A stretch of DNA of 5,214 nucleotides from a virus. Taxonomy: Duplodnaviria > Heunggongvirae > Uroviricota > Caudoviricetes. This document shows, piece by piece, positions 1-5,214 of this stretch. The stretch's first letter is position 1. Each line of letters opens with the position of its first letter. The stretch is from the IMG/VR virus record IMGVR_UViG_2671180636_000005; one strand, given 5' to 3'. The position numbers and the translations under genes are program-made. A model generated the notes under the pieces. That model ran no database searches. It was not told the origin of the DNA and was given only the letters and a program-made list of their open reading frames with translations.

Positions 1-59
1 TTGAACCAGCGACCTGGCGATTATGAGTCGCTCGCTCTGACCAACTGAGCTAAAGGGCC
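1..59 (-). tRNA. tRNA with CAU anticodon, 5' 59 nt only (3' end lies beyond the window start); most resembles tRNA-Ile2 (lysidine-type, AUA-reading) rather than tRNA-Met
   Basis: Reverse complement of 1-59 reads GGCCCTTTAGCTCAGTTGGTCAGAGCGAGCGACTCATAATCGCCAGGTCGCTGGTTCAA: acceptor 5' arm GGCCCTT, D-stem GCTC/GAGC, anticodon stem AGCGA/TCGCC (one A-C mismatch at the top pair), loop CTCATAA with anticodon CAT, variable loop AGGTC, T-stem 5' arm GCTGG plus TTCAA. From memory this is close to E. coli ileX-type tRNA. Not folded computationally. Confidence 0.85.
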
Positions 60-119: not shown

Positions 120-752
120 TTAACGTCCTGTGCCGTTTTTCAGGTATAAAAAANNNNNNNNNNNNNNNNNNNNNNNNNNNNNNNNNNNNNNNNNNNNNNN
201 NNNNNNNNNNNNNNNNNNNNNNNNNNNNNNNNNNNNNNNNNNNNNNNNNNNNNNNNNNNNNNNNNNNNNNNNNNNNNNNNNNNNNNNNNNNNNNNNNNNN
301 NNNNNNNNNNNNNNNNNNNNNNNNNNNNNNNNNNNNNNNNNNNNNNNNNNNNNNNNNNNNNNNNNNNNNNNNNNNNNNNNNNNNNNNNNNNNNNNNNNNN
401 NNNNNNNNNNNNNNNNNNNNNNNNNNNNNNNNNNNNNNNNNNNNNNNNNNNNNNNNNNNNNNNNNNNNNNNNNNNNNNNNNNNNNNNNNNNNNNNNNNNN
501 NNNNNNNNNNNNNNNNNNNNNNNNNNNNNNNNNNNNNNNNNNNNNNNNNNNNNNNNNNNNNNNNNNNNNNNNNNNNNNNNNNNNNNNNNNNNNNNNNNNN
601 NNNNNNNNNNNNNNNNNNNNNNNNNNNNNNNNNNNNNNNNNNNNNNNNNNNNNNNNNNNNNNNNNNNNNNNNNNNNNNNNNNNNNNNNNNNNNNNNNNNN
701 NNNNNNNCAAAAAAGCCTCAAGTTCAGACTTGTTCAGACCTGCTTTTTTCAT
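120..752 (-). CDS. Hypothetical protein (cargo gene 3); interior masked, so length (about 210 aa if uninterrupted) is unverified
   Basis: ATG at c(750-752) overlaps the TGA of the upstream frame (ATGA coupling) with GGAGG immediately 5'. Visible N-terminus MKKAGLNKSELEAFL; visible C-terminus FLYLKNGTGR with TAA at c(120-122). Stops inside the mask cannot be excluded. Confidence 0.3.
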   Translation of the reverse strand: MKKAGLNKSELEAFLXXXXXXXXXXXXXXXXXXXXXXXXXXXXXXXXXXXXXXXXXXXXXXXXXXXXXXXXXXXXXXXXXXXXXXXXXXXXXXXXXXXXXXXXXXXXXXXXXXXXXXXXXXXXXXXXXXXXXXXXXXXXXXXXXXXXXXXXXXXXXXXXXXXXXXXXXXXXXXXXXXXXXXXXXXXXXXXXXXXXXXXXXFLYLKNGTGR

Positions 753-1879
753 CCTCCGGAGCGCNNNNNNNNNNNNNNNNNNNNNNNNNNNNNNNNNNNN
801 NNNNNNNNNNNNNNNNNNNNNNNNNNNNNNNNNNNNNNNNNNNNNNNNNNNNNNNNNNNNNNNNNNNNNNNNNNNNNNNNNNNNNNNNNNNNNNNNNNNN
901 NNNNNNNNNNNNNNNNNNNNNNNNNNNNNNNNNNNNNNNNNNNNNNNNNNNNNNNNNNNNNNNNNNNNNNNNNNNNNNNNNNNNNNNNNNNNNNNNNNNN
1001 NNNNNNNNNNNNNNNNNNNNNNNNNNNNNNNNNNNNNNNNNNNNNNNNNNNNNNNNNNNNNNNNNNNNNNNNNNNNNNNNNNNNNNNNNNNNNNNNNNNN
1101 NNNNNNNNNNNNNNNNNNNNNNNNNNNNNNNNNNNNNNNNNNNNNNNNNNNNNNNNNNNNNNNNNNNNNNNNNNNNNNNNNNNNNNNNNNNNNNNNNNNN
1201 NNNNNNNNNNNNNNNNNNNNNNNNNNNNNNNNNNNNNNNNNNNNNNNNNNNNNNNNNNNNNNNNNNNNNNNNNNNNNNNNNNNNNNNNNNNNNNNNNNNN
1301 NNNNNNNNNNNNNNNNNNNNNNNNNNNNNNNNNNNNNNNNNNNNNNNNNNNNNNNNNNNNNNNNNNNNNNNNNNNNNNNNNNNNNNNNNNNNNNNNNNNN
1401 NNNNNNNNNNNNNNNNNNNNNNNNNNNNNNNNNNNNNNNNNNNNNNNNNNNNNNNNNNNNNNNNNNNNNNNNNNNNNNNNNNNNNNNNNNNNNNNNNNNN
1501 NNNNNNNNNNNNNNNNNNNNNNNNNNNNNNNNNNNAAATCCAGCNNNNNNNNNNNNNNNNNNNNNNNNNNNNNNNNNNNNNNNNNNNNNNNNNNNNNNNN
1601 NNNNNNNNNNNNNNNNNNNNNNNNNNNNNNNNNNNNNNNNNNNNNNNNNNNNNNNNNNNNNNNNNNNNNNNNNNNNNNNNNNNNNNNNNNNNNNNNNNNN
1701 NNNNNNNNNNNNNNNNNNNNNNNNNNNNNNNNNNNNNNNNNNNNNNNNNNNNNNNNNNNNNNNNNNNNNNNNNNNNNNNNNNNNNNNNNNNNNNGCTGTT
1801 TCTGGTTGAAATAACAGTCTTCCAGTTTTTCGAACACTTCCCACGCCTGATCGGTTTCGAGCATTTTGGCGTGACGGGC
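749..1879 (-). CDS. Hypothetical protein (cargo gene 2), partial; at least about 376 codons if no stop lies in the mask; 5' end is in the masked region
   Basis: In island 1795-1879 the minus frame reading ARHAKMLETDQAWEVFEKLEDCYFNQKQ uses common E. coli codons (CTG, GAA, AAA, CAG, TTC, AAC, CGT, ACC), whereas the other two minus frames carry rare AGG/AGA/GGG/CCC/TCG codons. The same frame ends RSGG-TGA at c(749-751). The 9-nt island 1536-1544 is open in this frame. Confidence 0.35.
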   Translation of the reverse strand, partial: ARHAKMLETDQAWEVFEKLEDCYFNQKQXXXXXXXXXXXXXXXXXXXXXXXXXXXXXXXXXXXXXXXXXXXXXXXXXXXXXXXXXXXXXXXXXXXXXXXXXXXXXXXXXXXXLDXXXXXXXXXXXXXXXXXXXXXXXXXXXXXXXXXXXXXXXXXXXXXXXXXXXXXXXXXXXXXXXXXXXXXXXXXXXXXXXXXXXXXXXXXXXXXXXXXXXXXXXXXXXXXXXXXXXXXXXXXXXXXXXXXXXXXXXXXXXXXXXXXXXXXXXXXXXXXXXXXXXXXXXXXXXXXXXXXXXXXXXXXXXXXXXXXXXXXXXXXXXXXXXXXXXXXXXXXXXXXXXXXXXXXXXXXXXXXXXXXXXXXXXXXXXXXXXXXXRSGG

Positions 1880-2137
1880 NNNNNNNNNNNNNNNNNNNNN
1901 NNNNNNNNNNNNNNNNNNNNNNNNNNNNNNNNNNNNNNNNNNNNNNNNNNNNNNNNNNNNNNNNNNNNNNNNNNNNNNNNNNNNNNNNNNNNNNNNNNNN
2001 NNNNNNNNNNNNNNNNNNNNNNNNNNNNNNNNNNNNNNNNNNNNNNNNNNNNNNNNNNNNNNNNNNNNNNNNNNNNNNNNNNNNNNNNNNNNNNNNNNNN
2101 NNNNNNNNNNNNNNNNNNNNNNNNNNNNNNNNNNNNN

Positions 2138-2172
2138 AGTGACGGGAGTTTTTCAATAGACGTGCGATTCAT
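2138..2172 (-). CDS. 5' end of the first gene downstream of the late leader (visible N-terminus MNRTSIEKLPS); product unknown, rest masked
   Basis: Minus strand reads AAAGGA-CATGTCT-ATGAATCGCACGTCTATTGAAAAACTCCCGTCA: Shine-Dalgarno AAAGGA 7 nt before the ATG at c(2170-2172). The frame differs from the codon-supported frame at 1795-1879, so this gene probably ends inside the 1880-2137 mask. Confidence 0.4.
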
Positions 2173-2315
2173 AGACATGTCCTTTCGAATATTTTGATTT
2201 ACCCCTTTTGAGAGGGTGACCGGGCGCTCAAAACCGTCGAAAGTCGGCGGGCGTATTTCCATTGCTGGTATTGTATTAGCCGCACACCCGGTCATAAACC
2301 AAGAATTCTGGACAC

Positions 2316-2343
2316 AAAAAAACCACATGGCTATCGGGTGTGG
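2316..2343 (-). terminator. Weak intrinsic terminator-like hairpin plus U7 tract (T2)
   Basis: Minus-strand RNA CCACA-cccgauagcca-UGUGG-UUUUUUU: 5-bp stem, 11-nt loop, 7 U. Oriented for the minus strand only (on the plus strand the A-run precedes the stem). Confidence 0.3.
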
Positions 2344-2378
2344 ATACCGCTTTCGAGGTGTTTTGAGCACCGCGGGGA

Positions 2379-2407
2379 AATGTAAACTGCAAACCTGAAA
2401 CTGTCAA
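2379..2407 (-). promoter_or_regulatory. Candidate sigma70 promoter P2 (-35 TTGACA, 17-nt spacer, -10 TACATT)
   Basis: Minus strand reads TTGACA-gtttcaggtttgcagtt-TACATT. The -35 is a perfect consensus hexamer with optimal spacing; the -10 is 4/6 but keeps A2 and T6. Predicted start near 2372, about 56 nt upstream of the T2 U-tract. Confidence 0.35.
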
Positions 2408-2532
2408 CACCGTCAGGTTCCAATCATCGGGTGGTGAGACGCACAGGGTTGGAACTACCGGGAAACCGACCGGCGAGCTTTTCAGCTCCCCCATGCGCCC
2501 CACCATAATTCAGATGTGCGCGTGCATACGAC

Positions 2533-2557
2533 AATAAAAAACACGCTCGCGGCGTGT
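2533..2557 (-). terminator. Intrinsic terminator candidate (tR'-like, T1)
   Basis: Minus-strand RNA ACACGC-cgcga-GCGUGU followed by UUUUUAUU: 6-bp stem (4 GC pairs), 5-nt loop, six consecutive U counting the last stem base. Lies about 75 nt downstream of the predicted P1 start. Confidence 0.55.
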
Positions 2558-2618
2558 GTCTGTCGCGGTCTCTATCCGGGGTTCCAATCCCGACGCCAGA
2601 TTTTGCTGGCGCGTGAGG

Positions 2619-2648
2619 AATATAGCCCCGGACAATGTGTCTGGTCAA
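2619..2648 (-). promoter_or_regulatory. Late promoter candidate P1 (pR'-like): -35 TTGACC, 18-nt spacer, -10 TATATT, 5 nt downstream of the Q stop codon
   Basis: Minus strand reads TAG-gtgc-TTGACC-agacacattgtccggggc-TATATT-cctcacG. Both hexamers are 5/6 to consensus. Its position immediately 3' of a Q-family gene is where lambdoid pR' sits. Predicted start near 2612. Confidence 0.5.
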
Positions 2649-2652
2649 GCAC

Positions 2653-2721
2653 CTACATAATTCGTTCTACGTATCTGTCCATCTCCAGCCGGATATCAAG
2701 CATCATCAACATGCCATCAAT
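2653..2721 (-). CDS. Antitermination protein Q, Q82/QuuD family, C-terminal 22 aa visible (rest masked; start expected near 3040 if about 127 aa)
   Basis: Visible C-terminus IDGMLMMLDIRLEMDRYVERIM then TAG at c(2653-2655). The motif GMLM-LDIRLEMD matches my recollection of the C-terminus of E. coli DLP12 QuuD and phage 82 Q. Position (after rusA, before a promoter/terminator leader) fits. Family call is from memory, not a search. Confidence 0.55.
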   Translation of the reverse strand: MDGMLMMLDIRLEMDRYVERIM

Positions 2722-3104
2722 NNNNNNNNNNNNNNNNNNNNNNNNNNNNNNNNNNNNNNNNNNNNNNNNNNNNNNNNNNNNNNNNNNNNNNNNNNNNNNN
2801 NNNNNNNNNNNNNNNNNNNNNNNNNNNNNNNNNNNNNNNNNNNNNNNNNNNNNNNNNNNNNNNNNNNNNNNNNNNNNNNNNNNNNNNNNNNNNNNNNNNN
2901 NNNNNNNNNNNNNNNNNNNNNNNNNNNNNNNNNNNNNNNNNNNNNNNNNNNNNNNNNNNNNNNNNNNNNNNNNNNNNNNNNNNNNNNNNNNNNNNNNNNN
3001 NNNNNNNNNNNNNNNNNNNNNNNNNNNNNNNNNNNNNNNNNNNNNNNNNNNNNNNNNNNNNNNNNNNNNNNNNNNNNNNNNNNNNNNNNNNNNNNNNNNN
3101 NNNN

Positions 3105-3436
3105 ACGCCCAGTCGCCCACCAGGAACGAGCTGACCGCGCACAATATTGATTTCATCAAACTGCTCGTCGTCTATGAGTAGTCCGGCATGCGTCAGCGCA
3201 TCCAGTGGTGCTTTCAGGATATTGTCCAGGTCACGACGGCGCTTATCCGGTGGCTCTGCAATAATCTTTATCGCCAGCCTTCCGGACAGGTTTAATTTCA
3301 GCCGCTGCTGGCGAACAATTAGCGTCACATCACGGCGATAACGCTCACCAACTTTTGATACAAAATATGTGCTGCCACGACGTCGCCAGTAAGTATTCAC
3401 CGTCGGCGGATAAGGTAAAATAAACTCATGGCGCAT
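3105..3436 (-). CDS. rusA: Crossover junction endodeoxyribonuclease RusA (Holliday junction resolvase); first 110 aa visible, last about 10-20 aa masked
   Basis: ATG at c(3434-3436) with GGAGGT about 9-10 nt upstream. Translation MRHEFILPYPPTVNTYWRRRGSTYFVSKVGERYRRDVTLIVRQQRL...PPDKRRRDLDNILKAPLDALTHAGLLIDDEQFDEINIVRGQLVPGGRLG carries the RusA catalytic DLDN motif and the downstream acidic LIDDEQ segment. Start overlaps the upstream stop (TGATG). Confidence 0.85.
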
Positions 3437-3678
3437 CAGCGCAGCACCTCCTGCACCATTTTTTCAAACTTTCCAACTTTGGTTTCCAGCTCTGCCACAC
3501 AATCAACGAGCTCATCCACCGCTTTTTGTGCGCGATGTTTCGCCTGCATCAGTTCCCTGAGCGCTGGCACCATATCCCGACGAATGGCATCTTTTGTTAC
3601 ACCTGTTTTTTCCAGTTGTTCCGCCTGTCGCAACATTTCCTGCGCGTGTTTACGCAATTGTTCAGAGGTAAAAGTCAT
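3436..3678 (-). CDS. Hypothetical 80-aa charged, probably alpha-helical/coiled-coil protein; function unknown
   Basis: ATG at c(3676-3678), 11 nt after the helicase stop; stop TGA at c(3436-3438) overlaps the rusA ATG. Translation MTFTSEQLRKHAQEMLRQAEQLEKTGVTKDAIRRDMVPALRELMQAKHRAQKAVDELVDCVAELETKVGKFEKMVQEVLR. E. coli-like codon usage; weak Shine-Dalgarno. The track's TTG start at 3693 adds 5 residues and is less likely. Confidence 0.6.
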   Translation of the reverse strand: MTFTSEQLRKHAQEMLRQAEQLEKTGVTKDAIRRDMVPALRELMQAKHRAQKAVDELVDCVAELETKVGKFEKMVQEVLR

Positions 3679-3689
3679 TGTCTGGTTGT

Positions 3690-5081
3690 TCAAAAGAAAC
3701 GCTCCATCTTACTGCTGTCGGTACGTGTATTGCTGTATCTGCGCGGCTGGGGCTGCCGCATTGGGGTGGAAAGAACCTGTGCGCTTTCCTGGTCCACAGG
3801 CAGAAAATGTCCGTTATAAAAACGCCGGTAAATCGTCCCCAGAGAACCGTTACGTTGTTTCGTGATATTAATTTCTGCTATGCCTGTAGCCTGTGTATCC
3901 GGGTTGTACACTTCATCCCTGTAAAGCATCAGAATGATGTCTGCATCCGCCTCTATTTCTCCGGAATTTTTCAGGTCTGAGTTCATGGGACGTTTATTGG
4001 GTCTGGACTCCACACCGCGGGAGAGCTGGCTCAGCGCAATCAACGGAAAACCACCGGATTTTGCCAGGCCTTTAAGCCCCTTTGAGATTTCACCCACGGC
4101 AAGGTCATGACGCCCCGTGGTTCGGGTTTTTATCAGCCCGAGATAATCAACCACCACCAGCGCCGTTTCCGGATGTTTAATCAGATGGTGTTTCGTTGTT
4201 GCGCATATCTCATCAATGGTCAGGTTCGCCTGGTCCACCATCCAGATATTGCGCCCGGTCATCCGCCCCACCCCTTGTGAGAAACGCGCCCAGTCTTCAT
4301 CTTCAAAGTGAGCCACAGATTTCAGGCGTGATACTGGCATCCCTCCAGCCGCAGACACCATACGTTCACCAATCTGGATGTTCGCCATCTCCATGGTGAA
4401 CAGAAGCACACCATGCCCCTGCTCAGTCACCTTGTCGATGATGTCCAGCGCAAGTTCGGTTTTCCCCATCGAAGGACGGGCGGCAATGAATACCAGGTCT
4501 CCGGGCTCCATACCGCCTGTTTTTGCGTCCAGTTCATCAATACCGGTCATCAACGTCCTGGATTTCTCCAGCCCCTGATTCCGGCATTCAACACGCTCAA
4601 CCACTTCCGGAAGCACATCATCAATATGTACCGGCTGAATGACGCCCTTTCCTGTCGACAGTGTGACCATCATGTTCTGCGCATCCTTCAGGGCATCTTC
4701 AGCTGCTTCACAGGTATGCGCATCACGTAATTTCTGCAGCGCCTCATTCAGTGTTTTTTCTGCATCGCGCAGTGCGGCATTGCGCCGCAACGCTGCAACA
4801 TAGTGCTCCAGTGAAGACTTCACCCAGGTTTTACGCCCGGTATCAGTAATCACCGGGGCAAGTTCCGGCATCTCATTACACAACAGCACGGGGTCAATCA
4901 CTCCTGAAACACGGGCCTGTCTGCAGATGCCTGTGTAGATATCCCGATACGCTCGTACAGAAAAAATGTCCGCCGGTAGTGTGATCAGAATATCCATCAC
5001 TTCATGATCTGCCCCACGCAGAAAGAATGCGCCAATGACAGCGCCTTCCAGGTCATCATTACGCCAGACTGGTGTTGTCAT
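3690..5081 (-). CDS. DnaB-family replicative DNA helicase, phage-encoded (P22 gene 12-like), 463 aa
   Basis: ATG at c(5079-5081) preceded by AGAGGTG at 7-nt spacing. Walker A ARPSMGKT near residue 201, DnaB-like N-terminal domain, and a C-terminal ITKQRNGSLGTI motif that aligns with E. coli DnaB IIGKQRNGPIGTV. Stop TGA at c(3690-3692). The track's start at 5102 is a TTG extension. Confidence 0.9.
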   Translation of the reverse strand: MTTPVWRNDDLEGAVIGAFFLRGADHEVMDILITLPADIFSVRAYRDIYTGICRQARVSGVIDPVLLCNEMPELAPVITDTGRKTWVKSSLEHYVAALRRNAALRDAEKTLNEALQKLRDAHTCEAAEDALKDAQNMMVTLSTGKGVIQPVHIDDVLPEVVERVECRNQGLEKSRTLMTGIDELDAKTGGMEPGDLVFIAARPSMGKTELALDIIDKVTEQGHGVLLFTMEMANIQIGERMVSAAGGMPVSRLKSVAHFEDEDWARFSQGVGRMTGRNIWMVDQANLTIDEICATTKHHLIKHPETALVVVDYLGLIKTRTTGRHDLAVGEISKGLKGLAKSGGFPLIALSQLSRGVESRPNKRPMNSDLKNSGEIEADADIILMLYRDEVYNPDTQATGIAEINITKQRNGSLGTIYRRFYNGHFLPVDQESAQVLSTPMRQPQPRRYSNTRTDSSKMERFF

Positions 5082-5214
5082 GCAGCCACACCTCTGATAC
5101 AAGAACGGTAGCTGGGCCAGTTGAACGACAACCAGTTGCGCCCCCCGTCTGTGATCCTGTCGGCAATGCGGGGGCTGATGAACGCTGGATTTGCCCCTAT
5201 ATTTCCAGACACCT
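5078..5214 (-). CDS. C-terminal fragment of the upstream replication gene (possibly an O-like or gene-18-like initiator, or a helicase partner); partial, continues beyond the window
   Basis: Frame is open for 45 codons from the window edge (VSGNIGANPAFISPRIADRITDGGRNWLSFNWPSYRSCIRGVAA) and ends with a TGA overlapping the helicase ATG (ATGA coupling at 5078-5081). Product assignment rests only on gene order in lambdoid replication modules. Confidence 0.4.
   Translation of the reverse strand, partial: VSGNIGANPAFISPRIADRITDGGRNWLSFNWPSYRSCIRGVAA

Follow-up and report, generated by a model that had tools for sequence, protein, structure and literature searches.

Promoter, leader and terminator upstream of sRNA-Xcc1

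The stretch of DNA analysed here (the window) comprises 5,214 nucleotides (nt) of a Caudoviricetes virus (IMG/VR record IMGVR_UViG_2671180636_000005). On its minus strand, to which all coordinates of the RNA elements described below refer, a gene that ends in the C-terminus of a Q antiterminator is followed by two consecutive promoter-plus-terminator units and by a gene of the ORF6N type. The first-pass annotation, made from the sequence alone, had placed both units in a leader between Q and the first late gene, and had read the second as a second attenuator, a small regulatory RNA of about 55 nt or the true late promoter pR'. This second unit (the P2 unit, 2407..2316) sits exactly between two Rfam matches, C4 (2510..2427) and the small RNA sRNA-Xcc1 (2293..2210; hereafter Xcc1), and probably supplies the promoter, leader and leaky terminator of an antisense-RNA switch centred on Xcc1. 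The elements involved are the following.

2407..2402, minus: P2 -35 hexamer TTGACA (promoter scan)
2384..2379, minus: P2 -10 hexamer TACATT, 17-nt spacer to the -35 (promoter scan)
2372..2316, minus: predicted leader RNA of ~57 nt with a1 hairpin, b1 and terminator (match to covariance model R1, 75.1 bits, E 5e-16)
2371..2357, minus: leader hairpin 1, GGUG 2371..2368 with CACC 2360..2357, loop holding a1 (sequence reading)
2368..2360, minus: element a1, GCUCAAAAC, complementary to a' of Xcc1
2356..2350, minus: element b1, UCGAAAG, complementary to loop b' of Xcc1
2349..2347, minus: near-invariant CGG right after b1 (comparison of relatives)
2343..2323, minus: terminator hairpin, CCACA 2343..2339 with UGUGG 2327..2323, 11-nt loop CCCGAUAGCCA
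2322..2316, minus: U7 tract directly 3' of the terminator hairpin (sequence reading)
2293..2210, minus: sRNA-Xcc1 (RF02221; Rfam, 77.4 bits against a gathering score of 53)
2243..2237, minus: Xcc1 element b', CUUUCGA, in the loop of the second hairpin, pairing with b1
2234..2226, minus: Xcc1 element a', GUUUUGAGC, in the junction 3' of the second hairpin, pairing with a1
2212..2206, minus: element a2, CUCAAAA, second a-target 3' of Xcc1 (complementarity to a')
2188..2182, minus: element b2, UCGAAAG, overlapping the Shine-Dalgarno AAGGA (2184..2180) of the ORF6N-type gene
2178..2176 and 2172..2170, minus: ATG start codons of the ORF6N-type gene (sequence reading)

The P2 hexamers match the sigma-70 consensus at 10 of 12 positions, with a spacer inside the 16-18 nt range of such promoters, and the minus-strand scan finds them where they had first been placed. 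The CCACA/UGUGG hairpin and its U7 tract were likewise confirmed by reading of the sequence, and the distances originally given are roughly right, the -35 hexamers of P2 and of the upstream promoter, P1, being 241 nt apart. From a start near 2372 and an end at 2316-2322 we infer an RNA of 51-57 nt. In the window alone, all of this stands at chance level: the scan returned 3 promoter-like sites against 2.4 +/- 1.9 expected, the P2 hairpin fails the terminator scan (loop of 11 nt, limit 8), and folding of the 2316-2372 transcript, a check that had been proposed for it, gave no better result than shuffled sequences (58-nt transcript, -8.3 kcal/mol, z = +0.93). The reality of the unit thus rests on its comparison with relatives. 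Within 2316..2407 the Rfam scan gave no match even at E<=1, isrK (RF01394) and c4-a1b1 (RF03163) included, and an exact-match scan of genome contigs with the P2 sequence of the window gave 0 matches. Two coding readings were set aside: a 30-codon open reading frame (ORF) beginning with TTG (2423..2331) is shortened in EC12 and absent in TL-2011c, and a 60-codon plus-strand ORF (2216..2398) was dropped, the pattern of conservation being that of RNA pairing. The terminator loop (2338..2328) carries a CCCG(N2)AG motif that, in the window and in the homologous terminator loops of loci L001-L240, is kept whatever the stem (cccgatagc, cccgtcagc, cccgacagc, cccgaaagt).

Conservation and covariation of the P2 unit

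Related loci were gathered by scanning for the Xcc1 core pattern, which returned 120 IMG/VR stretches and 120 genome stretches; the latter included many chance matches and were filtered by requiring the Xcc1 outer stem. Since a MAFFT alignment of the leaders was out of register at the stems, a covariance model of the P2 unit, R1, was built from 11 well-aligned leader seeds. When run on 93 Xcc1 loci, which come from IMG/VR viral contigs and from genomes of alpha-, beta-, gamma- and deltaproteobacteria, this model detects 84 copies; for 77 of them the Xcc1 core lies 31-285 nt downstream in the same orientation (median 59). Among 21 control loci without Xcc1, N15 and loci with isrK-C4 only included, there was no R1 match at E<0.1. 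In the R1 alignment 95.6% of stem cells are paired and all nine pairs show compensatory changes; none of 500 shuffles reaches the observed values of stem covariation, and slid controls are far lower. Helix 1 is paired in 98.8% of cells (4/4 pairs compensatory) and helix 2, the terminator stem, in 93.4% (5/5). Conservation and covariation span 75 distinct sequences from several bacterial classes.

The promoter and terminator motifs follow the same pattern. Across 35 diverse loci, a -35/-10 pair with at least 10 of 12 matches occupies the fixed place in 54%, against 1.4% of shuffles, and in most of these loci the -10 ends 22-27 nt before b1. A stem followed by a T-run of 5-8 comes after b1 in 34 of the 35, and the 5' strands of this stem vary widely (ccaca, ccgcg, ttcac, tcacg, ccagc and others). 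The comparison with relatives thus bears out the claim of the first-pass annotation that P2 is a true second promoter-plus-terminator unit, and the conservation in related leaders by which that claim was to be judged proved strong. Xcc1 with its leader unit is found in hosts as diverse as Pasteurellaceae, Erwinia, Edwardsiella, Symbiopectobacterium, Tolumonas, Xanthomonas, Legionellales, Oxalobacter, Desulfovibrionaceae, Azospirillum and Cohaesibacter, among others.

Some contigs (L101, Oxalobacter L225) carry tandem Xcc1 modules, each with its own b specificity. Additional R1 matches, on other contigs (L014/L119 and L201), are not followed by an exact Xcc1 core pattern, which suggests, as far as sequence can tell, variant partner RNAs.

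Three-site complementarity with Xcc1

Recognition sites are laid out in three places along a single transcript, namely a1/b1 (2368..2350) in the leader, a'/b' (2243..2226) in Xcc1 and a2/b2 (2212..2182) ahead of the ORF6N-type gene, which is the two-element architecture of c4-type systems. As in c4-type targets, b2 lies over the ribosome-binding site, and it does so in EC12, TL-2011c and many IMG/VR loci as well as in the window, where the Shine-Dalgarno AAGGA precedes the ATG at 2172 by 8 nt. The three b elements change in concert among relatives: EC12 and Z869 have b1 UCAGUAG, b' CUACUGA and b2 with Shine-Dalgarno UCAGUAGGA, and TL-2011c has b1 GCAAGUAG, b' CUACUUGC and b2 with Shine-Dalgarno CAAGUAGGA.

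This concerted change was quantified in 46 non-redundant IMG/VR loci, among which b' takes 43 different sequences, by counting complements of at least 7 nt between cognate and non-cognate partners. A complement of b' is present in the cognate leader in 76% of cases (9% non-cognate) and in the cognate ribosome-binding-site region in 65% (4% non-cognate). The corresponding figures for a' are 31/46 (67%) against 3.7% in the leader (a1), and 29/46 (63%) against 2.5% in the ribosome-binding-site region (a2). Mean duplex energies agree, at -24.5 kcal/mol for cognate and -17.6 for non-cognate pairs of Xcc1 and leader, and at -18.4 and -12.6 kcal/mol, respectively, for Xcc1 and the ribosome-binding-site region. 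The leader of the window has a predicted duplex with Xcc1 of -35.7 kcal/mol, which ranks first of 51 leaders; its a1 and b1 are adjacent and stand in antiparallel order to the loop and junction of Xcc1, so that a near-continuous duplex of ~24 bp is possible, and when the read-through RNA is folded, the structure of lowest energy joins a1b1 to a'b'. We also considered, and rejected, a third interaction, of the terminator loop with the 5' strand of Xcc1: it reaches 8 nt in the predicted read-through fold of the window and is not general, the mean longest match being 4.94 for cognate and 4.72 for non-cognate combinations.

Only 22 nt separate U7 from Xcc1, and on reading the sequence they contain no plausible promoter. 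There being no room for one, Xcc1 must come from read-through of P2 transcripts. The outer stem of Xcc1 is followed by an ACCC tail, which is consistent with excision from an operon transcript. Xcc1 has been described as an abundant, untranslated RNA in an EDL933 lysogen (PMC5331693) and as a discrete 88-nt species in Xanthomonas (PMC2996969), and it has been reported upstream of an ORF6N gene in APSE phages (PMC7313666) and, in a preprint, upstream of symE in Xanthomonas integron cassettes. In the window only ~32-38 nt lie between Xcc1 and the start codons of the ORF6N-type gene, and no coupled upstream ORF of the icd or orf45 type was found there.

Element a2 occupies the loop of a small hairpin, CCCU-CUCAAAA-GGGG (2218..2206), that mirrors the a1 hairpin GGUG-CUCAAAA-CACC. 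This likeness, which not every relative shares, suggests that the two target units, upstream and downstream of Xcc1, are paralogous.

A sister module upstream of P2

The transcript that begins at P1 can be assigned to a known type of module.

2648..2427, minus: upstream sister module P1-isrK/c4-a1b1-C4 (promoter scan and Rfam)
2648..2619, minus: P1 promoter (promoter scan)
2612..2536, minus: isrK (RF01394; Rfam, 77.5 bits)
2625..2573, minus: c4-a1b1 (RF03163), overlapping isrK (Rfam)
2510..2427, minus: C4 antisense RNA (Rfam, 71 bits)
2423..2417, minus: residual C4 target UUGGAAC, complementary to GUUCCAA 2455..2449 in C4

With its terminator, isrK/c4-a1b1 spans 2625..2536, and alignment with C311 and VT2-Sakai indicates that the rest of the C4 target and ribosome-binding-site region has been replaced by P2. 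The mosaic is also apparent in BLAST comparisons, which resolve the region into two blocks of homology: one takes in P1, isrK and C4 and in most relatives stops near 2398; the other begins at 2371, the predicted transcription start of P2, and runs through the hairpin, U7 and Xcc1 to the ribosome-binding site. In TL-2011c and O157:H7 TW14359 the second block is preceded by unrelated sequence, which still offers TTGACA-18-TATATT at the same distance. In C311 and VT2-Sakai the isrK-C4 block leads directly to an ORF6N gene, without P2 or Xcc1, and TW14359 has the order NinE, [P1-isrK-C4], ORF6N gene, [P2-leader-Xcc1], Ant gene. The window therefore appears, from sequence comparison, to hold two sister modules in tandem, the first of which lacks a gene of its own and retains only UUGGAAC. 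Homology to C311 and VT2-Sakai stops after GGTG(T/G)TGA(C/T)AGTTT (window 2427..2398), and the place of the P2 -35 is taken by GTGATA in C311. An independent C4-to-Xcc1 junction exists in IMG/VR locus L007.

The P1-isrK-C4 module is not tied to Q. It follows ninE in VT2-Sakai and O157 TW14359, and it lies in the immA region of N15, which the Rfam scan resolves into isrK plus C4; these sites are far from any Q.

Gene context

The gene downstream of Xcc1 has 82-84% nucleotide homology to ORF6N-domain genes of E. coli EC12 and O157 strains, and the homologous genes of EC12 and TL-2011c carry the Pfam domain ORF6N. On this homology it is classed as an ORF6N-domain, antirepressor-like gene and not as a late gene. 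Runs of N at 155..2137 and 2722..3104 mask most of this gene and of Q, and with them any late promoter that the window may contain. P2 begins ~250 nt from the stop codon of Q. The Q protein of EC12 and C311 is 81% identical to that of 933W (Stx2, Shiga toxin 2, phage type), and a ~90-nt stretch that abuts Q in Stx2 phages, the PR' region, is found in EC12 and C311 downstream of the ORF6N gene. In Stx2 phages PR' has been placed in this stretch, "closely associated with Q" (PMC7547250). As judged from EC12 and C311, the whole segment from P1 to the ORF6N gene seems to have been inserted between Q and the late promoter; the equivalent part of the window is N-masked. The P2 unit itself is not confined to the vicinity of Q: TL-2011c has it after a Rha gene, and phage 2851 and TW14359 have it in their nin region.

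These observations do not favour a leader running from Q to the first late gene, the frame in which both units had originally been set: P1 is the promoter of an isrK/c4-a1b1-C4 module, both modules occur away from Q, and the downstream gene is of the ORF6N type. Neither P1 nor P2 is likely to be the true pR', for which the homologue of the PR' region 3' of the ORF6N gene in EC12 and C311 offers another place. In loci L001 (5130..5215) and L003 (~3930..4020), the homologue of the Stx2 post-Q sequence found 3' of the ORF6N gene has the form TTTACG-16-TATCCT, with a hairpin and a T-run.

Relation to known regulatory systems

The closest parallel to the P2 unit is the IsrK system of Gifsy-1, in which a leaky terminator ends some of the transcripts begun at the isrK promoter, yielding short IsrK, and lets others through (PMC4825925). 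In trans, short IsrK increases anrP translation 139-fold through its pairing with the orf45 region, whose nucleotides are conserved and whose amino acids are not, and which yields the processed RNA STnc1160 (PMC4825925). In the window and in N15, C4 comes directly after isrK, and by this position Gifsy-1 orf45 would correspond to C4. Like that system, the P2 unit combines a constitutive-looking promoter, a predicted short RNA, a probable leaky terminator and an antirepressor-type gene, with two leader elements complementary to a structured RNA just downstream, and a true copy of the IsrK module lies directly upstream of it in the window. Unlike IsrK, the P2 leader has Xcc1 and not C4 as its partner, matches neither the isrK nor the c4-a1b1 model, and has adjacent elements that can form one near-continuous duplex with that partner. 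The coupled small ORF of the P1 phage and Gifsy-1 systems is lacking.

Similar parallels hold for the c4 systems of phages P1 and P7 (ImmI, c4-icd-ant) and of N15 (immA, the CA-RNA system known from experiment). In these, too, an antisense RNA is embedded in the transcript that it controls, two recognition elements have targets both upstream (a1, b1) and downstream (a2, b2), b2 lies over a ribosome-binding site that is followed by an antirepressor gene, and recognition sequences vary between elements. The layout of the P1 system was, in part, reportedly worked out by Citron and Schuster in 1990. C4 is excised from the operon transcript by RNase P. The c4 systems differ from the P2 unit in that their antisense RNA belongs to RF01695 instead of RF02221, in their icd-like ORF, which has no counterpart here, and in distribution, much of what is known of Xcc1 lying outside phages, as in the Xanthomonas integron cassettes upstream of symE. 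The P1 details also follow the review PMC12197685.

Two further classes of small phage RNA share some features with the P2 leader. The pR'-tR' units of lambda and Shiga-toxin phages, which give rise to 6S RNA and StxS, likewise join a constitutive promoter to a near terminator and produce a small RNA in lysogens close to Q (PMC7547250), whereas the P2 unit is not bound to Q and has a sequence content explained by pairing with Xcc1. The anti-sRNAs AgvB and AsxR of enterohaemorrhagic E. coli are very short (51-60 nt) prophage RNAs that antagonise another sRNA (PMC4104026). They lie, however, 3' of PR' in a moron site, occur as convergent pairs and act on core-genome sRNAs, whereas the predicted target of the P2 leader is a neighbouring phage RNA. 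Their position 3' of PR', together with the absence of an Rfam AgvB match at the P2 leader, led us to reject an assignment to this class.

A model for the P2-Xcc1 module

The motifs, conservation, stem covariation and three-way complementarity observed in this analysis lead us to propose, with a probability of roughly 0.7, that the P2 unit provides a self-contained Xcc1 antisense-RNA switch with its promoter, leader and leaky terminator, and that the short P2 RNA is an IsrK-like decoy or partner of Xcc1. Transcription from P2 would start near 2372, and many transcripts would probably end at the weak hairpin and U7, giving the ~57-nt RNA, in which a1 would be displayed in a hairpin loop and b1 would be single-stranded. 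The weakness of the terminator makes it probably leaky, and transcripts that read through it would comprise Xcc1 and then the ORF6N-type gene, whose own leader repeats a2 and b2. By analogy with C4, we infer that Xcc1 is freed from the read-through transcript, pairs with a2/b2 and blocks translation. Since the leader is predicted to pair with Xcc1 more strongly than does the ribosome-binding-site region, the short RNA could serve as a decoy for Xcc1 in trans, and the same sequence as a built-in sequestering partner in cis. Accumulated leader RNA would then raise expression of the antirepressor-like gene, as IsrK does, and the hypervariable b1/b'/b2 triplet would set the specificity of each module. 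A regulatory RNA of about 55 nt or a second attenuator, two of the readings offered by the first-pass annotation, thus come near the mark, and its recognition of a true second unit is borne out; the framing as a Q-to-late-gene leader is not supported.

Several points weigh against this proposal. The terminator hairpin is weak and atypical (-3.3 kcal/mol, 5 bp of which 3 are G-C, 11-nt loop), and the ends of the P2 transcript are predictions from sequence. The pair counts were taken from a model-fitted alignment, which favours the structure. The direction of regulation, that is, decoy and activation, is drawn entirely from the analogy with IsrK, for which its authors invoke mRNA refolding and a coupled upstream ORF (PMC4825925), and such an ORF is absent here. 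Finally, what can be read of the downstream gene in the window amounts to its initial codons (15 if counted from the ATG at 2178, 13 if from that at 2172) and the internal stretch 1795..1879, and its identity rests on homology to annotated relatives.

An account restricted to cis effects has some merit, although we consider it unlikely. P2 would then simply be the promoter of an Xcc1-ORF6N transcript, with a1/b1 holding Xcc1 in an inactive precursor fold or guiding its processing, and the hairpin and U7 would act as a weak stop or minor pause, with no trans role for the short RNA. The pairing of a1b1 with a'b' in the read-through fold agrees with this account, the terminator is indeed weak, and the IsrK paper also reports a cis role, as structure A, for the same pairing (PMC4825925). 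It is nonetheless hard to explain without termination why 34 of the 35 diverse loci retain a hairpin with 5-8 U through compensatory stem changes, and short IsrK has a demonstrated activity in trans.

Somewhat less probable again is an antisense-driven attenuator, in which Xcc1 from earlier read-through would bind a1/b1 on the nascent RNA and promote termination at U7, the outcome being negative feedback on Xcc1 and the ORF6N gene with the short RNA as a mere by-product. The P4 CI RNA and related immunity RNAs act by premature termination, and the location of the target sites directly 5' of the terminator, the conservation of that arrangement and the strength of the predicted leader-Xcc1 duplex would all suit such a mechanism. 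Yet we found no conserved antiterminator that binding of Xcc1 could displace. One candidate, in which the GCGG after b1 would pair with the 5' strand of the terminator, was discarded, GCGG being near-invariant while the stem varies without co-variation. Moreover, the gap of only ~7 nt between b1 and the terminator stem would leave very little time for an antisense RNA to bind, and in the homologous IsrK system the short RNA activates.

We regard it as very improbable that the P2 unit represents the true Q-dependent pR'/tR' or duplicates it. The unit does lie downstream of a Q gene, and in EC12 a simple scan of the interval from Q to the lysis genes shows no further sigma-70 promoter close to consensus. 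The unit is, however, also found away from Q in early or nin regions; in EC12 and C311, which have a Q 81% identical to that of Stx2 phage, a homologue of the PR' region comes after the ORF6N gene; and the transcribed sequence is explained by complementarity to Xcc1. Chance co-occurrence of the hexamers and hairpin, which the counts within the window and the fold no better than shuffles might suggest, is refuted for practical purposes by the conservation, the fixed position relative to Xcc1 and the covariation across 75 distinct sequences.

Significance and distribution

We found neither the leader unit nor the three-way complementarity described in the openly accessible literature, and no mechanism is proposed in the paper on Xcc1 and ORF6N in APSE phages or in the preprint on Xcc1 and symE. 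Until now Xcc1 has been regarded as an orphan sRNA that acts in trans and is tied to virulence regulators of Xanthomonas. The present analysis puts forward a concrete, testable mechanism for this family, together with a companion leader RNA that would work like IsrK/c4-a1b1 yet lies outside those families and all other Rfam models. The decoy, antisense RNA and ribosome-binding-site logic of c4/IsrK would thus have arisen or diversified in a second RNA family across the Proteobacteria. Extending this idea, we suggest tentatively, and at somewhat less than even odds, that Xcc1 is the antisense core of a widespread programmable three-site switch (a1b1/a'b'/a2b2) over ORF6N-type antirepressors, and perhaps symE-type toxins, in Proteobacterial phages and integron cassettes. 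The P2 transcript would then represent an unannotated family of 'anti-antisense' sRNAs, the b element a specificity code (43 variants in 46 loci) akin to P1/P7 heteroimmunity, and the CCCG(N2)AG loop and CGG would have a further role.

Both modules precede genes annotated as ORF6N-domain or Ant in Shiga-toxin phages (933W, Sp5-like elements). Since prophage induction can be triggered by antirepressors, the ratio of short leader to read-through could matter for the induction of toxin phages. For annotation, it follows that promoter-plus-terminator pairs beside Q should not automatically be taken for pR'/tR'.

Other features of the window

At the edge of the window, positions 1..59 (minus) hold the 5' part of a tRNA gene (Rfam tRNA, model positions 1-56 of 71, 40.3 bits) that is cut by the window end and on which ARAGORN makes no call. 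It is reminiscent of the tRNA genes that lie 3' of Q/PR' in prophages of the Stx type; in O157 Z869 (L002), the ORF6N gene is followed by a tRNA-Met. The genes upstream of the two modules (2717..5102, minus), which were identified solely from ORF translations and from the RusA/Q synteny of relatives, are typical of a lambdoid replication and nin region: they include a DnaB-type helicase (3690..5102), an 85-codon ORF (3436..3693) and a RusA-like ORF starting at 3436.

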